This document shows, one piece after another, positions 4,431 through 54,767 of a DNA stretch of 64,000 nucleotides (its first letter is position 1; each line of letters starts with the position of its first letter). This DNA comes from a virus (lineage: Duplodnaviria; Caudoviricetes), in the IMG/VR virus record IMGVR_UViG_3300028832_000134, positions 6,086 to 70,085 of that record; one strand, given 5' to 3'. Both the position numbers and the translations under genes were made by a program. The notes beneath the pieces were generated by a model. The model made no database searches and was not told the DNA's origin. It saw only the letters and a list, made by a program, of their open reading frames with translations.

Positions 4431-4743
4431 TGTATTTATTACAGATCAATGTATAAAGCGGAATGAGTCTAGAAGGTACGCCTTGAACTTCTTTCTCGTG
4501 CTTTATATTTACATCATAGAACCATTGGAGTGCTTCTACAGCGTCTAAGAGCTCATCAAGCCGAGGTATGCGAATGTACTCTCCACCAGCATACTTACAA
4601 AGATCAATCAAACTCTTATGCCCTATGATAGAAAATAGTTCTGGGAGCCATGCATATTCAGGAACATCACTCAACGGAGGCATCAAGCCTAACAAGTAAT
4701 GGAAATCAAGCTCCTCCGTCAACGGAAGTCGATTAGAGCTCAT
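4384..4743 (-). CDS. Mor-like transcription activator (tentative)
   Basis: IIGHKSLIDLCKYAGGEYIRIP resembles the Mor-family iG.e...L...fGG..iYiP motif. Confidence 0.45.
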   Translation of the reverse strand: MSSNRLPLTEELDFHYLLGLMPPLSDVPEYAWLPELFSIIGHKSLIDLCKYAGGEYIRIPRLDELLDAVEALQWFYDVNIKHEKEVQGVPSRLIPLYTLICNKYNAQLTEAVPAGDASI

Positions 4744-7739: not shown

Positions 7740-8693
7740 TCAGATATCAAACAACTTCTTAGGCCTGGGTTTTCTAGAGGGGTGATATGGATTGTTTCGC
7801 ACATACTGCATTACTGCCCACATATCTGCAGCAGCTCTTGCAGCATTAGACTCTTGGACATCTTGAATGGTTAGATGAAGGTGAGCAAGGTAGTCAGAAA
7901 GTTCTTTCAGATTGTACTCGTCGGCGCAGTCAACAAAACTCATATTAGACTTTACTCGACTTGTACGGCTTTGCTTGGAAACAGAAATCACTCCCCACTT
8001 GGTAGTATACATCTTACCATAAGCAGAGCGAAGACGATGACTTACACTATCCGCAGAGTATGCGGGGATCTTAGAAAGTGATTCAAGTGCAGTCATACCG
8101 AACAAGTGAGTTTTTACATCAGGGTTGCTTGATTGCTTGATGACATCATACACATTCTGCATGTAGATGTCCTTGACTTGCTGAGAAGTGTCGTTTGCAG
8201 GCGAAACTCCAAGATAAGGAAGCGGGTTACCTTCTTCGTCTCTCCATTCCAGCACTTTGCGAAGATGATCAAACGACTCGCCATGATGGAATACATAGAT
8301 AAGCTTCTCAGGAGACTTCAGCCTAGTCCGCATATGTAAATAGTTCTCACAGGATTTCATCGCACTCTCTTTGTAATCCTGAGGTGACTTAGGCTGACCA
8401 AACCGACCAGGAATAGTATCAAGTTGAGCAACAGCTGCGGTGTACTCATCAATGCTATTCACATAGTCAATGTATTCATCGAGGTCTACAGTTGCTTTAC
8501 CAGTATGGACTGAGAATGCTCCAGAATCAATAAACAGATGACTAGCGATACCTTGCTTGCAGTACTCGATAGCCTGACGGATAGAAGACCGATCCAGCTG
8601 AGAAACTAGAATAGCAATTGGATCGACATCTGGCATCTTAGCAAGAAGATCAGCCATCTGCTGAGTAAATGATCCGCTAAAGTAATATATCAC
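7740..8693 (-). CDS. TGT-fold base-exchange enzyme (DpdA-like, tRNA/DNA-guanine transglycosylase family)
   Basis: LFIDSGAFS, AQLDTIPG, HLFG, SADSVS motifs typical of TGT/DpdA TIM barrels. Confidence 0.7.
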   Translation of the reverse strand: MIYYFSGSFTQQMADLLAKMPDVDPIAILVSQLDRSSIRQAIEYCKQGIASHLFIDSGAFSVHTGKATVDLDEYIDYVNSIDEYTAAVAQLDTIPGRFGQPKSPQDYKESAMKSCENYLHMRTRLKSPEKLIYVFHHGESFDHLRKVLEWRDEEGNPLPYLGVSPANDTSQQVKDIYMQNVYDVIKQSSNPDVKTHLFGMTALESLSKIPAYSADSVSHRLRSAYGKMYTTKWGVISVSKQSRTSRVKSNMSFVDCADEYNLKELSDYLAHLHLTIQDVQESNAARAAADMWAVMQYVRNNPYHPSRKPRPKKLFDI

Positions 8694-34948: not shown

Positions 34949-35132
34949 CAGTTATCTCTCCATCAAATGTCCAGTACCACTTGCCATCAGCGCCAAGTGC
35001 CGCTGCACCTCCACCTACACTATCTTCGTTCTCCTCGAGATCGATACAGAGCTGAACATTTGGTTCTGGAAGCTCATCTCGGACTAGGTGTACTCCATCA
35101 TAAGGAAGTGACTTCACCTTAGCCATAATCAA
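34908..35132 (-). CDS. Hypothetical protein
   Basis: Coupled to the deaminase. Confidence 0.5.
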   Translation of the reverse strand: MIMAKVKSLPYDGVHLVRDELPEPNVQLCIDLEENEDSVGGGAAALGADGKWYWTFDGEITDDCRYKVKSWQYL

Positions 35133-35626
35133 TAGATAGTGCTGTTCATTGCAGCGTATTCGTCATACATCGCTTTGACTGCCCGTCGACTAGCTTCACC
35201 ACATAGAATTAGATCCACGATTGTGTCATCGCCGAACCCGGCGTGGCCGTTCTCGAGGAAGTCGTAGATGAACTGATCACAGAACCCGATGGCTTCTGCG
35301 TCTTTGACTTCGCCGCCAACATACACTACTTTGATGTTTGCCCAAATGATTGCACTCAAGCACATTGGGCAAGGACTACCGGTAGCGTAGAGCTCGCAAC
35401 CAGACAGATCATAAGTATCAAGTGCCTTGCAGGCTTCTCGGATGGCGTTTATCTCAGCATGAGCAGTAGGGTCGTTGTCTGCTAGGACTGAGTTAGATGT
35501 GATGACAATCACATGCCCATCCTTTACAACAGCTGCACCAAATGGACCACCTTGGCCCCGTGCCATTTTTGTCCGCGCATGATCAATACACTTCTGCATT
35601 ATCTCAGGATTGTATGTATTACTCAT
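35129..35626 (-). CDS. guaD: Guanine/nucleoside deaminase (CDA fold)
   Basis: GGPFGAAVV, DPTAHAEINAIREAC, PCPMCLSAIIWA. Confidence 0.85.
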   Translation of the reverse strand: MSNTYNPEIMQKCIDHARTKMARGQGGPFGAAVVKDGHVIVITSNSVLADNDPTAHAEINAIREACKALDTYDLSGCELYATGSPCPMCLSAIIWANIKVVYVGGEVKDAEAIGFCDQFIYDFLENGHAGFGDDTIVDLILCGEASRRAVKAMYDEYAAMNSTIY

Positions 35627-35659
35627 GAATAACCTCCCGGAGTCAAAAGATAATCAAAA

Positions 35660-35697
35660 GATAGTGTACAGCGTGTTGGTACATACTGTACACTATC
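35660..35697 (-). terminator. Intrinsic terminator after the amidase gene
   Basis: 12-bp stem GATAGTGTACAG/CTGTACACTATC followed by a T-rich run on the minus strand. Confidence 0.6.
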
Positions 35698-35709
35698 TAT
35701 AACGATCTC

Positions 35710-37215
35710 TTATCTACTCAGCTTAGTCCACACAGGAATGAAATTGTCCATCCAAGGATTGATTTTCTCAAGAGTTCGCGCTACTGCGAACACTTGATCA
35801 TCTCGATACTGACGACCAATCAGCTGAACGCCGATCGGAATATCCTGATCATTTTCTCTAATTAGACCACCAGGAACAGAGGCTGCTGGATATCCGACGA
35901 AATTGGCCAGAGGAGTTTCGGCGAACGAGATGAAATCTGTTTCGCTGTCTAGAAACTTTCCATCAATTCGTTCATTGCAGTGGCCATGCTGATGCTGTTT
36001 CATTGGAAGACAGATGGCAGTAGGAGACAAGATAAGATCATAAGACTCGAAGATATCTTCAAAGTTATCTAAGATGTCTGTCTTGACGTCGTTGAAGGAC
36101 CGAAAAACATTGATATTCATCTCCGCAGCATACTTGTTGTACGTGATGAACTCTTTTGGAACTTGCTCGAAATACTTTCCTTCAAAATTTATACCACGAG
36201 CACGCCAAGCAGCTAGATCGAGTGCAGTATCAACAGAGATCCAAGTTGCCCAAGTTCTCATTATCTCATTTACATCGTGCTTGAAGTTGAAGTGAACTAG
36301 GTCAACAGTTATTCCAGCAGATTCTAGTTTCTTTGCAACTTCCCAAGTGAGCTGTTTCACCCGATGATCTACCACAGGCCACAGATCAAAGTCGAATGTT
36401 ACAGCAACACGGAGACCAGATACTGGCATCTCCATCTGTTTTACGAAATCCACGTTCGCATTGATCGGCAAACTGAATGGATCTCTCGGATTGTAATGGG
36501 CCATTGCATTCAGCATAGTTGCACTGTCTGCTACTGTCTTGGTCAAGCATCCATTGAAGCAGAAAGGATGTGTAGCTGCCCATGCATCGGGTCTGCACAC
36601 ACTAGGCACAGTTCCAAGCGAGGGCTTGAATCCGAACAGATTGCACCAACCTGCAGGAATTCGGATAGATCCACCTGCGTCGCCGCCTTCGCCAAAGATG
36701 GCAAGTCCTGATGCAACTGCCGATGCTGTACCGCCAGAAGATCCTCCAGAAGTCCGGTTCAGATCAAATGGATTAGCTGTAGCCCCATATTGGAAATTCT
36801 CGCAAGCACCGCTGAATCCGAAAGCGGGAGCATTGGTCTTTCCGATTACGATCGCACCAAGCGACTCAGCTGCTTTACAGAACTCTGAATCATATGCGTC
36901 TACATCGGTTAGAACCGGAACACCACCGTGGGAATTTGTCCATCCGGTTTTGGAAGGTAAAAAGTCCTTCAAGCAGACTGGCACACCGGCAAACGGTCCG
37001 CAATACTCGCCGGCAGCTAATCGCTGTTCTAGCTTCTCTGCAGCCCTGAGAGCTTCATCCTTTCGAGTATAGGTGTATGCAGTTAGCAGACCGTTCCACT
37101 TTTCGATACGGTCAAAGAAGTACTCAATGATGTCGGTAGGAACAAGCTCGCCATCGTTGACGAGCTTGCCTATCTCAAGACCAGAGAGTCTCTCTAATTT
37201 AATGTCAGACTTCAA
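35710..37215 (-). CDS. Amidase-signature (GatA-like) amidase
   Basis: LKD, GKTNAPAFG, GGSSGG, GDAGGSIRIPA (Lys-cisSer-Ser triad). Confidence 0.9.
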   Translation of the reverse strand: MKSDIKLERLSGLEIGKLVNDGELVPTDIIEYFFDRIEKWNGLLTAYTYTRKDEALRAAEKLEQRLAAGEYCGPFAGVPVCLKDFLPSKTGWTNSHGGVPVLTDVDAYDSEFCKAAESLGAIVIGKTNAPAFGFSGACENFQYGATANPFDLNRTSGGSSGGTASAVASGLAIFGEGGDAGGSIRIPAGWCNLFGFKPSLGTVPSVCRPDAWAATHPFCFNGCLTKTVADSATMLNAMAHYNPRDPFSLPINANVDFVKQMEMPVSGLRVAVTFDFDLWPVVDHRVKQLTWEVAKKLESAGITVDLVHFNFKHDVNEIMRTWATWISVDTALDLAAWRARGINFEGKYFEQVPKEFITYNKYAAEMNINVFRSFNDVKTDILDNFEDIFESYDLILSPTAICLPMKQHQHGHCNERIDGKFLDSETDFISFAETPLANFVGYPAASVPGGLIRENDQDIPIGVQLIGRQYRDDQVFAVARTLEKINPWMDNFIPVWTKLSR

Positions 37216-37942
37216 TGTTGTACTCCTTCAAGTAAGCTGCACCAACCTGATCCTTCTTCCAGTTCTTCGCAAGACGATAACCGATAGGAGAGAATACGAC
37301 CTCGAAGGCCAGCTCAAGTAGCATCATCATGAACGAGCAGACGAGAACTTGCTTCCAAGTCCAGCCGAAGAACACGTAGGACACGAACAGTGCAAATACA
37401 AAATTGTCAACGAACTGACCTGCAGCAGTGGAGAGGAAACTGCGAATAGCAAATCCACCATAGGTGTCTTTCTTATCGACATGTTTGCCAACGAACTTGT
37501 TTACAACAGAATTAGTGACACCGCCAAGGAACATTGCAAGAGCAGACCCAATCACTACATACCAAGTAGAAGCAAGAGTAGCATCTAATCCGTTGTTGAT
37601 AGCTGTACTGATCTCTTCTGTAGCTCCAGCATAACTTGCGGCCCAAATGCCTGGAATCTTCACAATCAGCATATACATTACAGCAGTGAGCAGATTAGCG
37701 AGCATCGCAACGGTGTTAAGGATAGTAGCGGTCTTTGCGCCGAATCGCTTGCAGACAGCATCCATGCACAGGAAAGAGATCCATGAAACAAAGATGCCCG
37801 CCGTTGACGCAAGCCACGGCAGGTTGAAAACAGATTTATTTGCGAGGAGATTCATGGAGACGACGGAGAGGATGAAGATTGCTGTGACCATTCCAGGGAT
37901 GGCACGAAGAGCATCTTTGACTTGAGTTAGTAGCTTTTTCAT
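37205..37942 (-). CDS. yhhQ: Queuosine-precursor transporter (YhhQ/VUT family)
   Basis: Multiple TM helices, MNLLANK, SFLCMD..KRFG, RSFLSTAAGQFVDNFVF. Confidence 0.85.
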   Translation of the reverse strand: MKKLLTQVKDALRAIPGMVTAIFILSVVSMNLLANKSVFNLPWLASTAGIFVSWISFLCMDAVCKRFGAKTATILNTVAMLANLLTAVMYMLIVKIPGIWAASYAGATEEISTAINNGLDATLASTWYVVIGSALAMFLGGVTNSVVNKFVGKHVDKKDTYGGFAIRSFLSTAAGQFVDNFVFALFVSYVFFGWTWKQVLVCSFMMMLLELAFEVVFSPIGYRLAKNWKKDQVGAAYLKEYNIEV

Positions 37943-38012
37943 GATTGTTGTTCCTCCTAAGAACTTCTAGATTTTGTACTACTTGATGATCAGATACCTC
38001 CATTCAGATCAA

Positions 38013-38054
38013 TCATGAAGTCCGAGGAACATTCTTCGCGTGGTTCATTTTCAT
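38013..38054 (-). CDS. 13-aa leader peptide MKMNHAKNVPRTS
   Basis: Perfect AAGGAGG SD 7 nt upstream of ATG. Confidence 0.5.
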   Translation of the reverse strand: MKMNHAKNVPRTS

Positions 38055-38061
38055 GTTACTT

Positions 38062-38113
38062 CCTCCTTTATTTTTGTTTTACGAGGGGCTGTCAGGATGC
38101 TACAAAACCCTCG
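38062..38113 (-). promoter_or_regulatory. preQ1-I-like riboswitch candidate
   Basis: CGAGGG-loop(U...C)-CCCUCG-UAAAACAAAAAUAAAGGAGG upstream of yhhQ, starting about 7 nt after a promoter motif. Confidence 0.55.
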
Positions 38114-38157
38114 GTAGATATACTGTAACGATCTACGCAACTTTATATAAGGTGATC

Positions 38158-48996: not shown

Positions 48997-49072
48997 TGGA
49001 GCAGGAGACGGGACTCGAACCCGCGGCAGTCTGCTTGGAGGGCAGATACTCTACCATCTGAGTTACTCCTGC
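48997..49072 (-). tRNA. tRNA-Gly(UCC)
   Basis: Full cloverleaf, encoded CCA. Confidence 0.95.
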
Positions 49073-49074
49073 AT

Positions 49075-50135
49075 GTTGGCATACTACCGATGATCAATCG
49101 GCTGTCTCCCCTGGGGTATGCCAGCTTCCAGCGGACGCTGTTTTAATACGCGCACGCCTTTGCGTAAGCTTCCATCAAGCTCTAAGAGTTGTTTTTGATC
49201 ACAGGCCGAACCAATCCTGATTTAATTTGATGAAACAATGACGGCCCCTTTACGAACAATCTCTCCGGTTACATTACGCCTGACGCTCAAGTAAGAGTTG
49301 GTCATCGTAGCCTCTGCTCAATTCATGTCCGCTATCCTACTGGGGACGCATCCCCAACCCTCACCGGATTGATTGTCGGAAAGGGGCCGATCACAGCTTG
49401 TGTCATTTTCGATCCATTCGCTCTTGCAGCTCGCTCACAGATCTCCATCTCTGCTGAGGTCTACTTCTGGCACAAGATACTTTATTCTGCACTCTCGTAG
49501 TAAATGTTGCAATGGAGAATTTCCCGGGGTTGTTAGGTACCCGTACAACAATAACCTGCACGCCCCCACTATACTATGTACCATCACACAGGCAGTATAG
49601 TGTCGCTTCCGTCAGATATATCTTTTCACTGACGGTGACGTACTTTTCGTGTGGCGCCTTTTCCCACTTGGCGCCTGGGTCGCATCTCTCGTCAAAGTCT
49701 GCTCAACATGTTACCATGCTTCTTGCCTTCGTCCTTGTTGACAATTTGACAACAAGACGGGCGACCCCCTGAGGCCCAATAATGTTGCCGGATCTACGGC
49801 TCTAACAAGGAATGTGCATGCTCCAACAGATAGTGCTATTCGTATCACTCAGAGCTACACGTTATTACTCCTCGCATCCTTGCTAGATCACATGGGGCCG
49901 CTCTTCTGCGTCACTATCGGCGCGTGCGGCCAGGCTCCGACAGCTGAAATGATCTGCTGCCGGGGCAACTCCCTCCCGATTTCAGTTGCAGCTACGGGTT
50001 ATAATACTGCAACCTAGTGGGGCAACCGGACTTCAGGAGAGCGTCAGCACCACTTGACCTATGTGTTAACTCCCTACACGACTACTTACTTGCCTGGTCG
50101 TCGTCGTATCCGGCCGGCAGTGTGCGTCAATTAGA
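49075..50135 (-). ncRNA. Large structured ncRNA candidate (GOLLD/ROOL-like)
   Basis: About 1.06 kb with no credible ORF between two tRNAs, many nested helices. Confidence 0.5.
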
Positions 50136-50138
50136 CGC

Positions 50139-50222
50139 TGGTGCGGATGACAGGACTCGAACCTGCATGGTCTATCCACTGGAACCTAAATCCAGCGTGT
50201 CTGCCAGTTCCACCACATCCGC
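50139..50222 (-). tRNA. tRNA-Leu(UAG)
   Basis: Cloverleaf with variable arm, CCA. Confidence 0.95.
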
Positions 50223-50225
50223 AAG

Positions 50226-50510
50226 TTAATCAGGAAGATTAGTTTCGCCTACATTGAAGTAGTGAACGGTCTGCGTAACCGTGTACAGATCTCTGCTGGT
50301 CATCGTGTGAGATGCCAGAATGAAATTGTAGGCTTCGCTGTCGATCTCGCAATCCACGGTGCTGAGTACGTCACACCGGAAAGGCTTAACTCCTTCCTCA
50401 TGGTTGAGCATCACCTCGTACCCCGGACGGATGCTGCCAAATGCCGGTGCAGTGGCAATCACGAGAGTACCGTGATCTCTCCTCTTGCAAAGAACCAACT
50501 TGATGTACAT
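50226..50510 (-). CDS. Hypothetical protein
   Basis: Start MYIKLV after GGAGGT and a promoter motif. Confidence 0.6.
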   Translation of the reverse strand: MYIKLVLCKRRDHGTLVIATAPAFGSIRPGYEVMLNHEEGVKPFRCDVLSTVDCEIDSEAYNFILASHTMTSRDLYTVTQTVHYFNVGETNLPD

Positions 50511-50584
50511 ATCAGTACCTCCTTGAATTTTATTGATGTGTTGGCTGCTTACAACTACTATAACGATCGAGAAAATTTGAAGAA

Positions 50585-50660
50585 TGGAGCTGCTGGACGG
50601 ACTCGAACCGACGGCCTGCGAATTACAAATTCGCTGCTCTACCAACTGAGCTACAACAGC
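50585..50660 (-). tRNA. tRNA-Thr(UGU)
   Basis: Full cloverleaf, CCA. Confidence 0.95.
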
Positions 50661-51041
50661 ATCTCCTGCCGAATAGTTTAATGTGATGACAGATATTCCC
50701 TACATTATTTTCTGCCTGTCCCAAATGACGCATTCAGATAACAGCCACTTTGTGATAATATTATTTCGTATTATCTCGTTTTTGTTAGCCAGGACAACTT
50801 GTTACACCTGTCGTTGAATATAACGATCAGGGGACAAGTATCACATTATTTTGATAGTGTCCCGTAGTCGACGCCTTAGTCCGACCATCCATAGGTTCTT
50901 CGGCGATCCAACGATCTTTCCTATGCGCACGCAGGCGAATTTTCGTGCGTCCGGGACGTTTTAGTTACCCCTTAGATTGTGTAGCAATACTCTAAGCATG
51001 AGGATTTTCTGATGTGTGGCATGATCTCAAAGCTACGCCCC

Positions 51042-51118
51042 TGGCGACTCTGACGGGAATCGAACCCGTGACCTCTGGCGTGACAGGCCAGCGCTCTAAC
51101 CATCTGAGCTACAAAGCC
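51042..51118 (-). tRNA. tRNA-Asp(GUC)
   Basis: Full cloverleaf, CCA. Confidence 0.95.
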
Positions 51119-51594
51119 ATGTAGATGCCTTATTCATCATGACTTAGTTGACCTTTCCCGGCATGGGTGACCGGTTCTCGGTCCAGTGTACCGTGCTGCC
51201 ATTTTTGTCGAATACACCAGATCGGCAGATCCTTCAGCAGAGCTAATCTCACTGGCCCACCAAGTAGCAATGCATTTCATTCTCTCTGAAGGCAGGCACC
51301 CCTCAGATCATCGGGAGCTACCCGATTCTCGTCTCTCCGAAGCGTCACGGTGCTAAGTTCCCTGCTGCTTGAGTGTCACACCGTTTGTACCCACTGTAAC
51401 CCGTGCAGGCTTGAGGCACATCTTAGCTGGAGTGCATCGATATATGCATCCTTCCCTTGTATCAGCTGAATACAAGTCTCCATAGGACTACTGGTAAGTG
51501 TAAGATCTCCTGGTACAGCGATATCCTCCAGATCTTGTCGAACTATTTCAACACTGGATGCCAGGACTGTTTGGGGATCGTTTATCTTACACTT

Positions 51595-51668
51595 TGGCTG
51601 GGGATACTAGAATCGAACTAGTTCAAACGAGGTCAAAGCTCGTTGCGCTGCCAATACGCTAATCCCCA
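51595..51668 (-). tRNA. tRNA-Gln(UUG), divergent
   Basis: U1 start, ACGAG-CTTTGAC-CTCGT arm, CCA; 5' end overlaps the endonuclease stop codon. Confidence 0.9.
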
Positions 51669-52282
51669 GTATCTTTAGTTAAGTATGCATCAATTTGTTT
51701 CTGATATCGAATGAACCACTCTAACGATCTATTGCAGCATACACATAACATCCCTCGAAACTTATTAGTAGAATGATCATGATCAACTGACAGCCCCATT
51801 TTTCGTTTATTTCCATTTACTGTTTGATAATGGCTAAAATCGCGTCCGCATATTTCACACACAGGATGTGCTTGTTTGTATTCATCTAGCTGTTTATAGT
51901 TAATATCTAGTTTGATAAGTTCTGTACCGTTGTATGCTGAAACAAATTTATTAGATATTTTTTGATTACTACGGAGATGCATGCTAAAATGATTACTCAA
52001 TCCAATATAATTTTTGAACGATTTTCCACATTCCGGACACCTAAGTGGATCATCTGCATCCCAAACAAATTCTGGCAACTTATCTAATCTTTGTTTACAA
52101 CCTAAATTAAACTTATCTTTATCTTTGTGCTTACCTTTTAGTGTATCCGACACTCTCTTGTTTACTTCACTTCTGTGCATCCGCGAAGCATATTGGCGAC
52201 TACAATGTGGTGAACAAAATCTGCCTGATCCATATTTCCCATCATGCGTTACACCGCAATTCTCACAGATATAAGTTGACAT
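51659..52282 (-). CDS. Endonuclease VII-type HNH nuclease with zinc fingers (homing endonuclease-like)
   Basis: CENCG..FCSPHC, C2H2 finger CPECGKSF..LSNHFSMH, CEICG..VDHDH..RGMLCVCCN. Confidence 0.8.
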   Translation of the reverse strand: MSTYICENCGVTHDGKYGSGRFCSPHCSRQYASRMHRSEVNKRVSDTLKGKHKDKDKFNLGCKQRLDKLPEFVWDADDPLRCPECGKSFKNYIGLSNHFSMHLRSNQKISNKFVSAYNGTELIKLDINYKQLDEYKQAHPVCEICGRDFSHYQTVNGNKRKMGLSVDHDHSTNKFRGMLCVCCNRSLEWFIRYQKQIDAYLTKDTGD

Positions 52283-52323
52283 TTTGAACCTCCAATTTTA
52301 TGATGTTACAATAAAATTAAAGG

Positions 52324-52361
52324 TTCAAAGTCCGATGTGATTACCATTTCACCACATCCCA
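52324..52361 (-). pseudogene. 5' half of tRNA-Gln(UUG), truncated after the anticodon loop
   Basis: TGGGATG TG GTGA-AATGGTAA-TCAC A TCGGA CTTTGAA, then unrelated sequence. Confidence 0.8.
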
Positions 52362-52551
52362 TTATGTAACACAATCAAGCAGCGGATGTGCTGTTGTCCT
52401 AACCTTATCTGCATGATTGTGTGCGAGTGATCGGAGTGGAAGATGTGACTGGTGACATCTTCCGGCACAGCACATTACAGGAGCACCCTTGCCTGTCCCT
52501 CATGTCTGTCTGGACTGAGGTACTATGAACAATTCCGCACAGCGCGCGGCC

Positions 52552-52627
52552 TGGTGGGCCCAGCAGGACTCGAACCTGCGATCAACCAGTTATGAGCTGG
52601 CAGCTCTGCCAACTGAACTATAGGCCC
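52552..52627 (-). tRNA. tRNA(CAU), probably Ile2
   Basis: GGGCCTA acceptor, CTCATAA loop, CCA. Confidence 0.9.
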
Positions 52628-52776
52628 ATATAGGGCAGCCCATTGCTGACCCAAGGGCTGCATCACAGCTCGTGGCCGGCTTTTTGCGTAGGCTGGTTGG
52701 TCAGACTCCGCTTCCGGAGTTTCGCATCTTATGGTCTGTTTCGTAGAATGCCTTCTACACGGGCAGACTTCCCGAA

Positions 52777-52871
52777 TGGCTCACCCGGCAGGAATTGGAC
52801 CTGCATCTCCCTTGCGCATCAGGTGTTTTACCGAAGGACTTGTTGATCGCCTTACATTAAACTACAGGTGA
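52777..52871 (-). tRNA. Atypical tRNA-like RNA (expanded D-loop, poor anticodon stem)
   Basis: Acceptor TCACCTG/CGGGTGA+GCCA and T-arm intact. Confidence 0.5.
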
Positions 52872-52877
52872 ATATTG

Positions 52878-52953
52878 TGGTGGAATTGATGGGACTCGAA
52901 CCCACGACCTATTGCTTGCAAGGCAATTGCTCTCCCAACTGAGCTACAACCCC
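52878..52953 (-). tRNA. tRNA-Ala(UGC)
   Basis: G3:U70, CCA. Confidence 0.95.
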
Positions 52954-53082
52954 ATGTATGAATCAAGTAAATAGCTGTGACCATCCATTCAACTACAGCT
53001 TTGCACATATAGCGTGCTTTCCGGTGTGGTTAGTACCTTACTCCAAGATGTCTCCGGCACTTCGTAGCACTATTTACCTGAT

Positions 53083-53167
53083 TGGTGTTCAGCGTGGGAC
53101 TCGAACCCACATGCATTGCTGCATCGGTACTTGAAGCCGACATGTCTACCAATTCCATCAGCTGAAC
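53083..53167 (-). tRNA. tRNA-Leu(CAA)
   Basis: Cloverleaf with variable arm, CCA. Confidence 0.9.
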
Positions 53168-53171
53168 ATGT

Positions 53172-53260
53172 TGGCGGAGCAGGTAGGATTTGAACCCACG
53201 GCTCCTTGCGGAGTCACCGGTTTTCAAGACCGGCTCCATAAACCACTCGGACACTGCTCC
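53172..53260 (-). tRNA. tRNA-Ser(UGA)
   Basis: Long variable arm, CCA. Confidence 0.95.
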
Positions 53261-53373
53261 TTATATGTTCGGATACTAGGTCCATATGTGACACTAGAAA
53301 CGTTACAATCTTCGTGCCGGACCTAGTACCCTCCCCAGAATCTGTTGATTCTTTAGTGGACAATCATATTAGA

Positions 53374-53449
53374 TGGTCCAAGTGGAGGGACTCAAACCCC
53401 CGACATCCGGTCCCCAAGGCCGGCGTTCTATCAACTGAACTACACCTGG
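53374..53449 (-). tRNA. tRNA-Pro(UGG)
   Basis: Cloverleaf, CCA. Confidence 0.9.
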
Positions 53450-53652
53450 ATGTATTATCTGCATCATTTATCTAACAAGATAGCTGCTTGTCGTAGTTAG
53501 TATCTGACCTGTACTAGACTTTACTGCCGGCTGTCGCTGCAGACAACAGCTGCCACAGCATCTTGCGAGCTACTTCTTTTGGGCGGGACAAGTAGCAAGC
53601 CCTAGGCAACTAATGAACGACGAAGGATACTTCTTCATGATTCATACCTTTC

Positions 53653-53738
53653 TGGTGCCGCTAACCGGACTCGAACCGGCACGGAATAACTCCGGCGGAT
53701 TTTAAGTCCGCTACGTCTACCAATTCCATCACAGCGGC
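53653..53738 (-). tRNA. tRNA-Leu(UAA)
   Basis: Cloverleaf with variable arm, CCA. Confidence 0.95.
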
Positions 53739-53743
53739 GTTTA

Positions 53744-54183
53744 TGGTGGACCCGGCGAGAGTCGAACTCGCGTCCAAAATTCCTACATAAACACAATCTT
53801 CTTACGCAGTAGGAAACTCGTTTCTGGCATTCAGTAGGCTGCCAAGGACCTTACCATGACCTTTGTGCCTGTTAGGGCTGCCCAGTTATGGGTTCGCCTC
53901 CACCACCTTGTTTTTCCGACAACAAGGAACGTCATTCAGTACCGCCAGCATAAGTCTGTTATACCTGGCGACCTGCTAATTCTTTGACCTCAAGTGTTTA
54001 CCTAGCAGGAGGTACACTGTTTCGGATCCTGTAGTGCTTAAGCAGCAGCCTTCAGAGAGGAAGCAGCGAAAGCAGGATGGATAGCGATGATAGTAGTGTC
54101 AGTTAATTTGTTGTTGACCCTTAGGCGGTATCATACCTGCGAATTGTGTTTTCTCAGAACCCTGTCGAAACCTTTACGGGCCC
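53744..54183 (-). ncRNA. ssrA: tmRNA; tag (A)DTTIIAIHPAFAASSLKAAA*
   Basis: 5' GGGCCCGTAAAGGTTTCGAC, 3' GTTCGACTCTCGCCGGGTCCACCA with G3:U, resume context AAATTAACT|GAC, tag frame 54100-54038. Confidence 0.93.
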
Positions 54184-54691
54184 ATGTGGGGGTGTATCTG
54201 CACATATCTACTTAACTTCTGCCAGATACTGGGAGGGGAAGAACGCTGGATGCATCGCGTTATAGATACCTTGAGCCGGTTGAATCAAAATGTGAGTAAC
54301 CGCATTTATGTAACCTCACATGAAACAGCTATCAGCAAAGATGGCATCAACACCGAAGCTCCGCCGGAGGCGTGATCAGACTGTTTCTTTTGAACACTTG
54401 CTCTTGGTTACGACTTGTCAAAGGCTAGTAAAGAGAGCAACCAGATAGGAGCGAACGGTCCAGGTAGGTCAGCTCGGACTAGATATGGGGGCAAGTCGGG
54501 CAAGCGGTTGGAATGGAAAGCAACGAACCCTCTAGTTTAATGCACCTATTATGACAAGTATCACTACTTTGTCTCCCGGGATTTTCTGCTATTCAGTGCA
54601 TCCTGTGTCACTTGTGCTGGCGATCAACTCAGGTCCATGATAGGGAGGAGATCTAAGGTTCCGTTCATTTCGGGACTACGGATTCGTCACT

Positions 54692-54767
54692 TGGTGGGAA
54701 CAGCAGGACTCGAACCTGCGACCCCTTCCTTGTAAGGGAAGTGCTCTACCAGCTGAGCTATACTCCC
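54692..54767 (-). tRNA. tRNA-Val(UAC)
   Basis: Full cloverleaf, CCA. Confidence 0.95.

Follow-up and report, generated by a model that had tools for sequence, protein, structure and literature searches.

Described routes of 7-deazaguanine salvage involve the transporters YhhQ and QueT and the enzymes QueK and QueL. In Clostridioides difficile, a transporter and processing enzymes (QueK, QueL and QueT, a system attributed to Yuan et al., 2019, cited in PMC11130926) reportedly regenerate preQ1 without the de novo pathway. Here, we describe a locus of a large phage, from rumen or gut, in which a yhhQ gene is coupled to an amidase gene behind a preQ1-I-like leader RNA. The locus was analyzed in a window of 64,000 nucleotides (nt), corresponding to bases 6086–70085 of the 70,085-bp IMG/VR virus record IMGVR_UViG_3300028832_000134, which carries replication genes, 12 tRNAs, one tmRNA and a gene for a homologue of the DNA guanine transglycosylase DpdA.

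A related phage system is that of Streptococcus phage Dp-1, whose DNA carries dPreQ1 and whose queuosine-like cluster (queF-like, queC, queD, queE, folE, queT and dpdA) includes the preQ1 transporter QueT (PMC6884629). For phages encoding DpdA only, Hutinet et al. 2019 proposed reliance on a precursor made by the host or imported, and some phages were found to encode YhhQ (PMC6884629). We think it probable, with modest confidence, that the locus described here is an operon for salvaging a 7-deazaguanine, most likely preQ1, under repression by its ligand, and that it supplies a Dp-1-type DpdA which exchanges guanine in the phage DNA.

The yhhQ–amidase pair

On the minus strand of the window, the locus consists of a promoter-like motif, a pseudoknot leader, a short upstream open reading frame (uORF), yhhQ, the amidase gene, a hairpin with a U-run, a second promoter-like motif and a gene for a GuaD-like deaminase, in this order (Table 1). 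The DpdA-like gene lies on the same strand. Every element listed in a first-pass annotation of the window, made from the letters alone, is present there.

The transporter homologue is preceded by a GGAGG of its own, and its Vut_1 domain extends over the full length of the protein, covering PF02592 profile positions 1–151 of 152. The protein scores 36.9 bits against the NCBIfam equivalog TIGR00697 and falls below its cut-off of 50.95. The riboswitch and the co-occurrence with que genes and DpdA suggest that this YhhQ transports preQ0 or preQ1.

The start codon of the amidase gene is a TTG, and an AAGGAG inside the end of yhhQ precedes it by 7 nt; the two genes overlap by 11 nt and are translationally coupled. 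Among 13 homologues, no variation was seen in the Lys/cis-Ser/Ser triad (K83, S159 and S183) or in the GGSSGG motif. Of the solved proteins, the aryl acylamidase 4yj6 matches best, over the full length (2e-85), with GatA farther away (7e-45). An assignment as GatA itself was considered and rejected, as the protein reaches 197.6 bits against a TIGR00132 cut-off of 481 and its neighbours are yhhQ and the deaminase gene, with no GatB or GatC. In the ESM Atlas, only generic amidase clusters were found for this enzyme.

The coupling of yhhQ to the amidase, already pointed out in the first-pass annotation, recurs widely. Six IMG/VR relatives carry the amidase (54–61% identity) directly after yhhQ, and a large protein search with the amidase returned more than 120 clusters at 51–92% identity. 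Where at least 900 nt of upstream sequence were available, the gene immediately upstream of the amidase was yhhQ in 59 of 68 loci, with YhhQ identities ranging from 33% to 97%. The pair is an old, tight unit, conserved and co-regulated. Among GenBank phages, megablast of the cassette and tblastn of YhhQ gave no match, and all tblastn matches of the amidase stayed below 35% identity, most of them in records that are unannotated or contaminated.

Two variations of the arrangement were observed. In a complete 175-kb phage (G004), a riboswitch-led yhhQ (L009:6001-6723) and the amidase gene (L009:9756-11198, 47% identity) are separated by about 3 kb, which implies an insertion between the two. In many other phages, a short-chain dehydrogenase/reductase (SDR) of 224–232 amino acids (aa) occupies the place of the amidase and is coupled to a riboswitch-led yhhQ by an overlap of 1–14 nt (L157:5297-5986(-) and L012:6742-7422(+); also L018, L019, L020, L028, L030, L032, L037, L041, L052, L056, L057, L059 and L069). 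This coupling is seen even in phages carrying a full queF–queCDE–folE operon. Besides the amidase, the SDR is thus another candidate for an enzyme that processes an imported precursor.

Structure and covariation of the leader RNA

The leader comprises a hairpin of CGAGGG, a 20-nt loop and CCCUCG, followed by an A-rich tail and AAGGAGG. The stem P1 is formed by positions 38113–38108 with 38087–38082, and in P2 the loop bases UCCU (38097–38094) pair with the AGGA of a Shine–Dalgarno (SD) sequence (38067–38064). A C at 38088 is unpaired and invariant, and the A-rich tail occupies 38081–38068. The SD sequence sequestered in the window leader is that of the uORF, not that of yhhQ.

The element recurs in relatives, where its stems differ in sequence. 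An IMG/VR pattern scan for the motif returned 63 stretches, and 37 distinct copies were aligned. P1 was paired in all copies (100%), with four of its five pairs compensatory, i.e., changed on both sides. The P2 core was paired in 97–100%; four to six loop bases join the SD region, and the two sides change in step (UCCU/AGGA, CCUU/AAGG, CUCAU/AUGAG, AACCUU/AAGGUU and CAACU/AGUUG). Overall, 90.3% of the helix cells were paired versus 66.6% in shuffled alignments, and none of 500 shuffles reached the observed score; controls in which the partner was slid by 1–3 columns were only 42–66% paired.

The invariant columns of the alignment are G10, U11–14, C30 and C31, together with the A-rich tail; a U(U) flank and a specificity C are positions of the class I preQ1 riboswitch (PMC11625349). 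The preQ1-I hallmarks are kept, namely the U-run after the 5' arm of P1, the C before its 3' arm, the A-rich tail and a P2 formed on the SD sequence. The "preQ1-like leader" of the first-pass annotation is thereby borne out as an H-type pseudoknot with covarying P1 and P2.

Rfam did not call the leader. At the gathering score, only the tRNAs and the tmRNA were reported for the whole window, and no match was found at E ≤ 10 in the 500 bases around the leader or at E ≤ 1 in eight motif-bearing loci. The leader is a real structured RNA nonetheless. A covariance model built from the type with a 20-nt loop (R1) scored the window copy at 69.8 bits. Leaders with a 15-nt loop were not recovered by R1, nor is this type detected by RF00522; they were found by an architecture scan.

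In two loci, two copies of the expanded-loop motif lie 260–600 nt apart (L062:4244-4316 and 4502-4574; L269:508-581 and 1093-1165), and these may be tandem riboswitches.

Genes behind the leader and the loop-length series

In the viral contigs, the first long open reading frame after 58 motif copies encodes only Vut_1/YhhQ (30 distinct proteins) or QueF (12). One motif copy heads a yhhQ–SDR–queF–queC–queD–queE–folE operon in L157, and in L012 one copy heads yhhQ–SDR and a second heads queF–queC–(HNH)–queD–queE–folE. Since the RNA gates the SD sequence of operons that make or import preQ1, its simplest reading is a preQ1-type OFF switch; preQ1 or preQ0 as the ligand, and repression on binding, are suggested by this association with yhhQ and queF operons.

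The gene between queC and queD of L012 encodes a NUMOD4/HNH homing endonuclease (L012:8800-9459(+)). In L013 (7495-9003(+)), QueF has 503 aa versus 172, with an insert of about 330 aa after the active-site region (..EFTSKC / PKTGQPDF..), which resembles an intein that includes a homing-endonuclease segment.

A preQ1-I-like leader was found within 300 nt of yhhQ in 47 of 53 distinct yhhQ–amidase loci, compared with 0.012 per 310 nt for the background on the same strands. The loop measures 12–13 nt in 9 of these 47 loci, 15 nt in 34 and 20–21 nt in 4, the more distant yhhQ–amidase pairs having the same leader architecture with shorter loops. At L261, which has a 12-nt loop and an intrinsic terminator following it, RF00522 gives a match of 25.7 bits (E 0.002), which falls short of its gathering score of 39. 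The window RNA therefore probably works like a preQ1-I riboswitch and is probably derived from one, though by the Rfam test it is not a member of that family.

The uORF and a predicted relay to yhhQ

The window leader would control the SD sequence of the uORF, and a predicted helix would pass this state on to yhhQ. In the predicted fold, the 3' codons of the uORF, GUUCCUC GGACUUC (38030–38017), pair with GAAGUUC..GAGGAAC (37967–37950) and thereby cover the yhhQ SD sequence (37957–37953). In this model, a ribosome occupying the uORF would make the yhhQ SD sequence accessible. We infer the relay rather than observe it, because its fold energy is no better than that of shuffled sequences. A 9-codon uORF occurs in L001, with its stop codon inside a terminator hairpin. 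L002, L004 and L006 have no uORF and no relay, and there the switch lies directly on the yhhQ SD sequence.

DpdA and probable scavenging by the phage

The DpdA-like protein is most closely related, among isolates, to gp7 of Streptococcus phage Dp-1 (45% identity, 8e-48), and its match phrog_887 is the PHROG that holds phage transglycosylases. No Pfam match was found, PF01702 included, and a sequence search of the PDB gave no match below E 0.4. The first-pass call of a DpdA/TGT-like gene at this position (TGT, tRNA-guanine transglycosylase) is accordingly upheld.

A DpdA homologue is present in all four closer relatives, which are 83%, 96%, 100% and 100% complete, at 49–57% identity. Of 29 other phage records with the motif, 22 contain it as well, including 13 of the 15 that are at least 90% complete. 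Two complete 41-kb phages, G427 and G428, carry riboswitch–yhhQ–SDR and no DpdA homologue. In a complete 144-kb phage (G418:C1:142395-143414), the DpdA homologue matches in two adjacent pieces (query residues 3–157 and 150–315), which suggests a frameshift or a split gene.

Genes for de novo synthesis were searched for in the same records. The 70-kb record has no QueC, QueD, FolE, QueF or radical-SAM gene; QueC, FolE, QueF and radical-SAM genes are absent from all five records (that of the window and its four relatives), and QueC, QueE, FolE and QueF were not found in the three relatives that are 96–100% complete. As DpdA is kept while the synthesis genes are absent from near-complete relatives, scavenging is the best reading. 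The idea that the phage scavenges the precursor instead of making it, put forward in the first-pass annotation, is thus well supported. One complete relative without QueC, QueE, FolE and QueF encodes a lone PTPS/QueD-like gene (G003:C1:124312-124731, 31.9 bits).

Bacterial carriers and the amidase substrate

The yhhQ–amidase pair was also detected in three of 399 sampled Clostridia genomes (G345, G391 and G335), at 47–50% identity and with a 15-nt-loop leader. The operon stands alone there, among unrelated, ordinary chromosomal genes. A pattern scan of bacterial genomes gave at least 120 listed matches, nearly all by chance; the one real match listed was L157, a 127-kb contig that resembles a phage and belongs to a Clostridia metagenome-assembled genome. 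These listed matches do not show the motif to be rare in bacteria. The salvage reading proposed for the phage in the first-pass annotation is retained, but the cassette is not specific to phages.

All three Clostridia encode a bona fide TGT (~1e-166). No QueF was found in them, and the QueC model reached only 20–32 bits versus ~190 bits for true QueC. With a TGT but neither QueC nor QueF, these bacteria must salvage a TGT substrate. The first-pass annotation had proposed that the amidase interconverts 7-amido-7-deazaguanine (ADG) with 7-carboxy-7-deazaguanine (CDG) or releases a precursor from a conjugate. The carriers could not use CDG, which argues against hydrolysis of ADG to CDG and favours an enzyme that yields preQ1 itself; amide hydrolysis with this product implies an N-acyl-preQ1 substrate. 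Our favoured guess is that the amidase releases preQ1 from an N-acylated form, e.g., formyl- or acetyl-preQ1; formyl-preQ1 was found in the DNA of one phage (PMC10516641). The step from ADG to CDG agrees poorly with the bacterial carriers, as it does with a switch family that precedes preQ1-producing operons in other phages.

The GuaD-like deaminase

The product of the gene downstream of the amidase is best described as GuaD-like, with guanine as its putative substrate. Its best solved relative is the guanine deaminase GuaD of B. subtilis (1wkq, 1.5e-32), compared with 1e-18 for TadA, and plant guanosine deaminases match nearly as well (1e-27). The protein keeps the HAE (HAEINAI) and PCPMC zinc motifs, the counterpart of D114 (the Asp of FCDQ) and a Tyr at the C terminus (..TIY).

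The riboswitch should not control this gene, given the terminator-like hairpin and the promoter-like motif of its own that precede it. The deaminase is located beside the amidase in only two of 66 related loci and was not found in the four more complete relatives. It is encoded, at 43–62% identity, in 11 of the 29 other motif-bearing phage records, all of them large phages. In those inspected, a de novo que operon is present; the deaminase gene is found ~1 kb downstream of folE and is followed, as in the window, by the KTSC gene. Its position near the que operon could reflect conserved backbone synteny. The view that the deaminase is a pure accident of the window, which the counts for loci and relatives had suggested, was softened by this recurrence next to the que operons of a sister lineage. 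A functional tie, e.g., the removal of guanine, which the base exchange releases and which competes in it, is possible but rather doubtful. The first-pass annotation was right about the presence and separate promotion of the gene, while the tie to the amidase that it suggested is weakened by the 64 of 66 loci without it.

Other features of the window

The 12-nt motif AGATCGTTAYAG has nine copies in the window when one mismatch is allowed, versus 0.65 expected. The copies lie mostly directly 5' of minus-strand genes, including one ahead of the leader and one ahead of the deaminase gene, and their positions include 12452, 29377, 32959, 35697, 38123, 50558 and 51719. We regard the motif as a candidate phage-specific promoter element. 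The hairpin behind the amidase was not listed by a consensus terminator scanner because its loop has 14 nt. A transcription start within the hairpin arm would let the deaminase transcript escape this terminator. The tmRNA (78.8 bits) and the 12 tRNAs, among them tRNA-Asp(GUC), a queuosine-target tRNA, are encoded at 53744-54183(-) and 48997-54767(-), respectively.

Table 1. Features of the salvage locus and the DpdA-like gene in window coordinates
Feature	Position	Strand	Basis or remark
Promoter-like motif AGATCGTTACAG	38123..38134	-	Directly upstream of the leader; copy of AGATCGTTAYAG
preQ1-I-like H-type pseudoknot aptamer	38062..38113	-	20-nt loop; sequence and covariation
13-codon uORF MKMNHAKNVPRTS	38013..38054	-	Own SD sequence is the one sequestered by P2
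Predicted relay helix	37950..38030	-	In minimum free energy and centroid folds
yhhQ / COG1738 (Vut_1), queuosine-precursor transporter homologue, 245 aa	37205..37942	-	PF02592, 1.8e-20
Amidase-signature enzyme, 501 aa	35710..37215	-	PF01425, 2.5e-84
Second promoter-like motif copy AGATCGTTATAG	35697..35708	-	Abuts the 5' arm of the hairpin, ahead of the deaminase gene
Likely terminator of the yhhQ–amidase transcript	35645..35697	-	12-bp hairpin GAUAGUGUACAG / CUGUACACUAUC, 14-nt loop, then U-run
GuaD-like deaminase of the CDA fold, 165 aa	35129..35626	-	PF00383, 8e-25
DpdA-like DNA guanine transglycosylase homologue	7740..8693	-	DSGAF motif; phrog_887, 8.5e-38

Discussion

The elements of the locus can be combined into the following model. 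Transcription would start at the phage promoter-like motif, and the leader would adopt an H-pseudoknot fold of the preQ1-I type, enlarged in its loop. At ample supply of the base, this loop would pair with the SD sequence of the 13-codon uORF; with the uORF untranslated, its 3' codons would hold the yhhQ SD sequence, keeping yhhQ and the coupled amidase off. When the base is scarce, the uORF would be translated, the yhhQ SD sequence freed and the precursor imported by YhhQ. The amidase would then turn the imported, amide-bearing form into a usable base, which DpdA would exchange for guanine in the phage DNA. The two-gene unit may originate from gut or rumen Clostridia, where it would serve tRNA queuosine salvage. 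The GuaD-like enzyme would be an optional, separately transcribed addition that may remove guanine.

In outline, the first-pass reading, in which a salvage cassette behind a riboswitch serves a phage with DpdA, appears right, with the amidase reaction and the role of GuaD unproven or weak. A more specific version of the model takes the amidase as a previously undescribed preQ1-releasing salvage enzyme, for tRNA queuosine in Clostridia and for dPreQ1 via DpdA in phages, and adds new preQ1-I subtypes with expanded loops (20 and 15 nt), the uORF relay and guanine removal by GuaD. We put this forward tentatively, and it is doubtful that all of its parts hold jointly.

Several observations weigh against the salvage model. 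The window leader is not matched by RF00522 at the gathering score of 39 bits, and its loop has 20 nt where a compact aptamer has ~12, which leaves room for a changed ligand specificity. The relay helix has a fold energy z-score that is not significant against shuffles, and a relay is not needed in relatives without a uORF. The record containing the window has a CheckV completeness of only ~47%. The dpdA gene is 27 kb away from the cassette, so that the link to DNA modification rests on co-occurrence, and the window encodes tRNA-Asp(GUC), a possible beneficiary via a host TGT. A natural pool of N-acyl-preQ1 is undocumented apart from the formyl-preQ1 in the DNA of one phage. Amidase-signature enzymes most commonly hydrolyse primary amides, a reaction that would speak for ADG to CDG.

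This last point, together with the presence of GatA among the relatives of the amidase, is the starting point of a rival explanation, in which the amidase hydrolyses ADG to CDG, or acts in the reverse interplay, the phage uses a base of the CDG/ADG type and the expanded-loop switch senses that base. Both dADG and dCDG exist in phage DNA (PMC6884629, PMC10516641), and the enlarged loop and the failure of RF00522 would accommodate such a ligand. We nevertheless consider this explanation unlikely, as CDG offers no route to a TGT substrate in bacterial carriers that have TGT and lack QueC and QueF, the 20-nt-loop motif heads queF–queC–queD–queE–folE operons with preQ1 as their end product, and the DpdA is closest to that of a dPreQ1 phage, Dp-1. 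The cassette might instead serve tRNA, with the host TGT using imported preQ1 to maintain queuosine on host and phage GUN tRNAs while infection proceeds, the phage tRNA-Asp(GUC) included, and with DpdA unrelated. That the same operon accompanies tRNA TGT in bacteria agrees with this, as do the two complete 41-kb phages that have riboswitch–yhhQ–SDR without DpdA and the distance between dpdA and the cassette. Such a role is improbable, considering the recurrence of DpdA in all four close relatives and in 13 of the 15 motif-bearing records that are at least 90% complete, and the documented DNA modification in phages combining DpdA with a precursor transporter (Dp-1).

An explanation without any 7-deazaguanine would treat the amidase as a passenger with an unrelated substrate, e.g., a vitamin amide imported by a Vut_1 protein of other specificity, and the leader as a generic translational pseudoknot. 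The YhhQ score below the TIGR00697 cut-off, the Pfam family name 'putative vitamin uptake transporter' and the lack of an Rfam match for the leader are in line with it. However, the motif precedes only yhhQ and queF operons and grades into near-canonical preQ1-I leaders ahead of the same gene pair, and the pair is kept across YhhQ identities of 33% to 97%; we regard the passenger explanation as very unlikely. The salvage of a 7-deazaguanine, most likely preQ1, for DpdA therefore remains our preferred reading.

Comparison with known systems

The window leader resembles the preQ1-I riboswitch (RF00522; types I–III in PMC11625349) in its H-type pseudoknot with a P1 of 5–6 bp, U residues after the 5' arm of P1, an unpaired C before the 3' arm, an A-rich 3' tail, a P2 formed with the SD sequence and its place ahead of yhhQ/que genes. 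It differs in a loop of 20–21 nt (15 nt in the commonest bacterial relatives) versus ~12 nt, in a conserved GUUUUGUA...UGA.A.C signature and in acting on a uORF in the window instead of on the transporter itself. Entire groups of preQ1-I-like switches, namely those with 15- and 20-nt loops, escape RF00522, which affects the annotation of gut and rumen metagenomes and of phages.

Like the queuosine-like cluster of Dp-1 (PMC6884629), the window lineage pairs a 7-deazaguanine transporter with DpdA. Dp-1, however, makes the base de novo and uses QueT, whereas the window lineage has no synthesis genes, uses YhhQ and has added an amidase. The scavenging idea for DpdA-only phages is already known, but no riboswitch control, partner enzyme or bacterial counterpart operon is described by Hutinet et al. 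2019 (PMC6884629). The literature searched contained no amidase of the que or dpd pathways and no description of the partner amidase of this salvage cassette.

On the enzyme side, the C. difficile salvage system reportedly employs a nucleoside hydrolase and a radical-SAM lyase, whereas the present unit employs an amidase-signature hydrolase, replaced by an SDR in sister phages. The aryl acylamidase 4yj6/4yji shares the amidase-signature fold and cleaves an N-acyl compound to set an aromatic amine free. It degrades xenobiotics and is tied neither to a transporter nor to deazapurines; the shared chemistry is only a lead. Taken with these systems, the yhhQ–amidase operon, conserved under a preQ1-type switch in DpdA phages and in Clostridia that depend on salvage, suggests that one more substrate and enzyme take part in salvage, and a lineage of ~120–175 kb phages appears to depend on a scavenged base for anti-restriction modification of its DNA.

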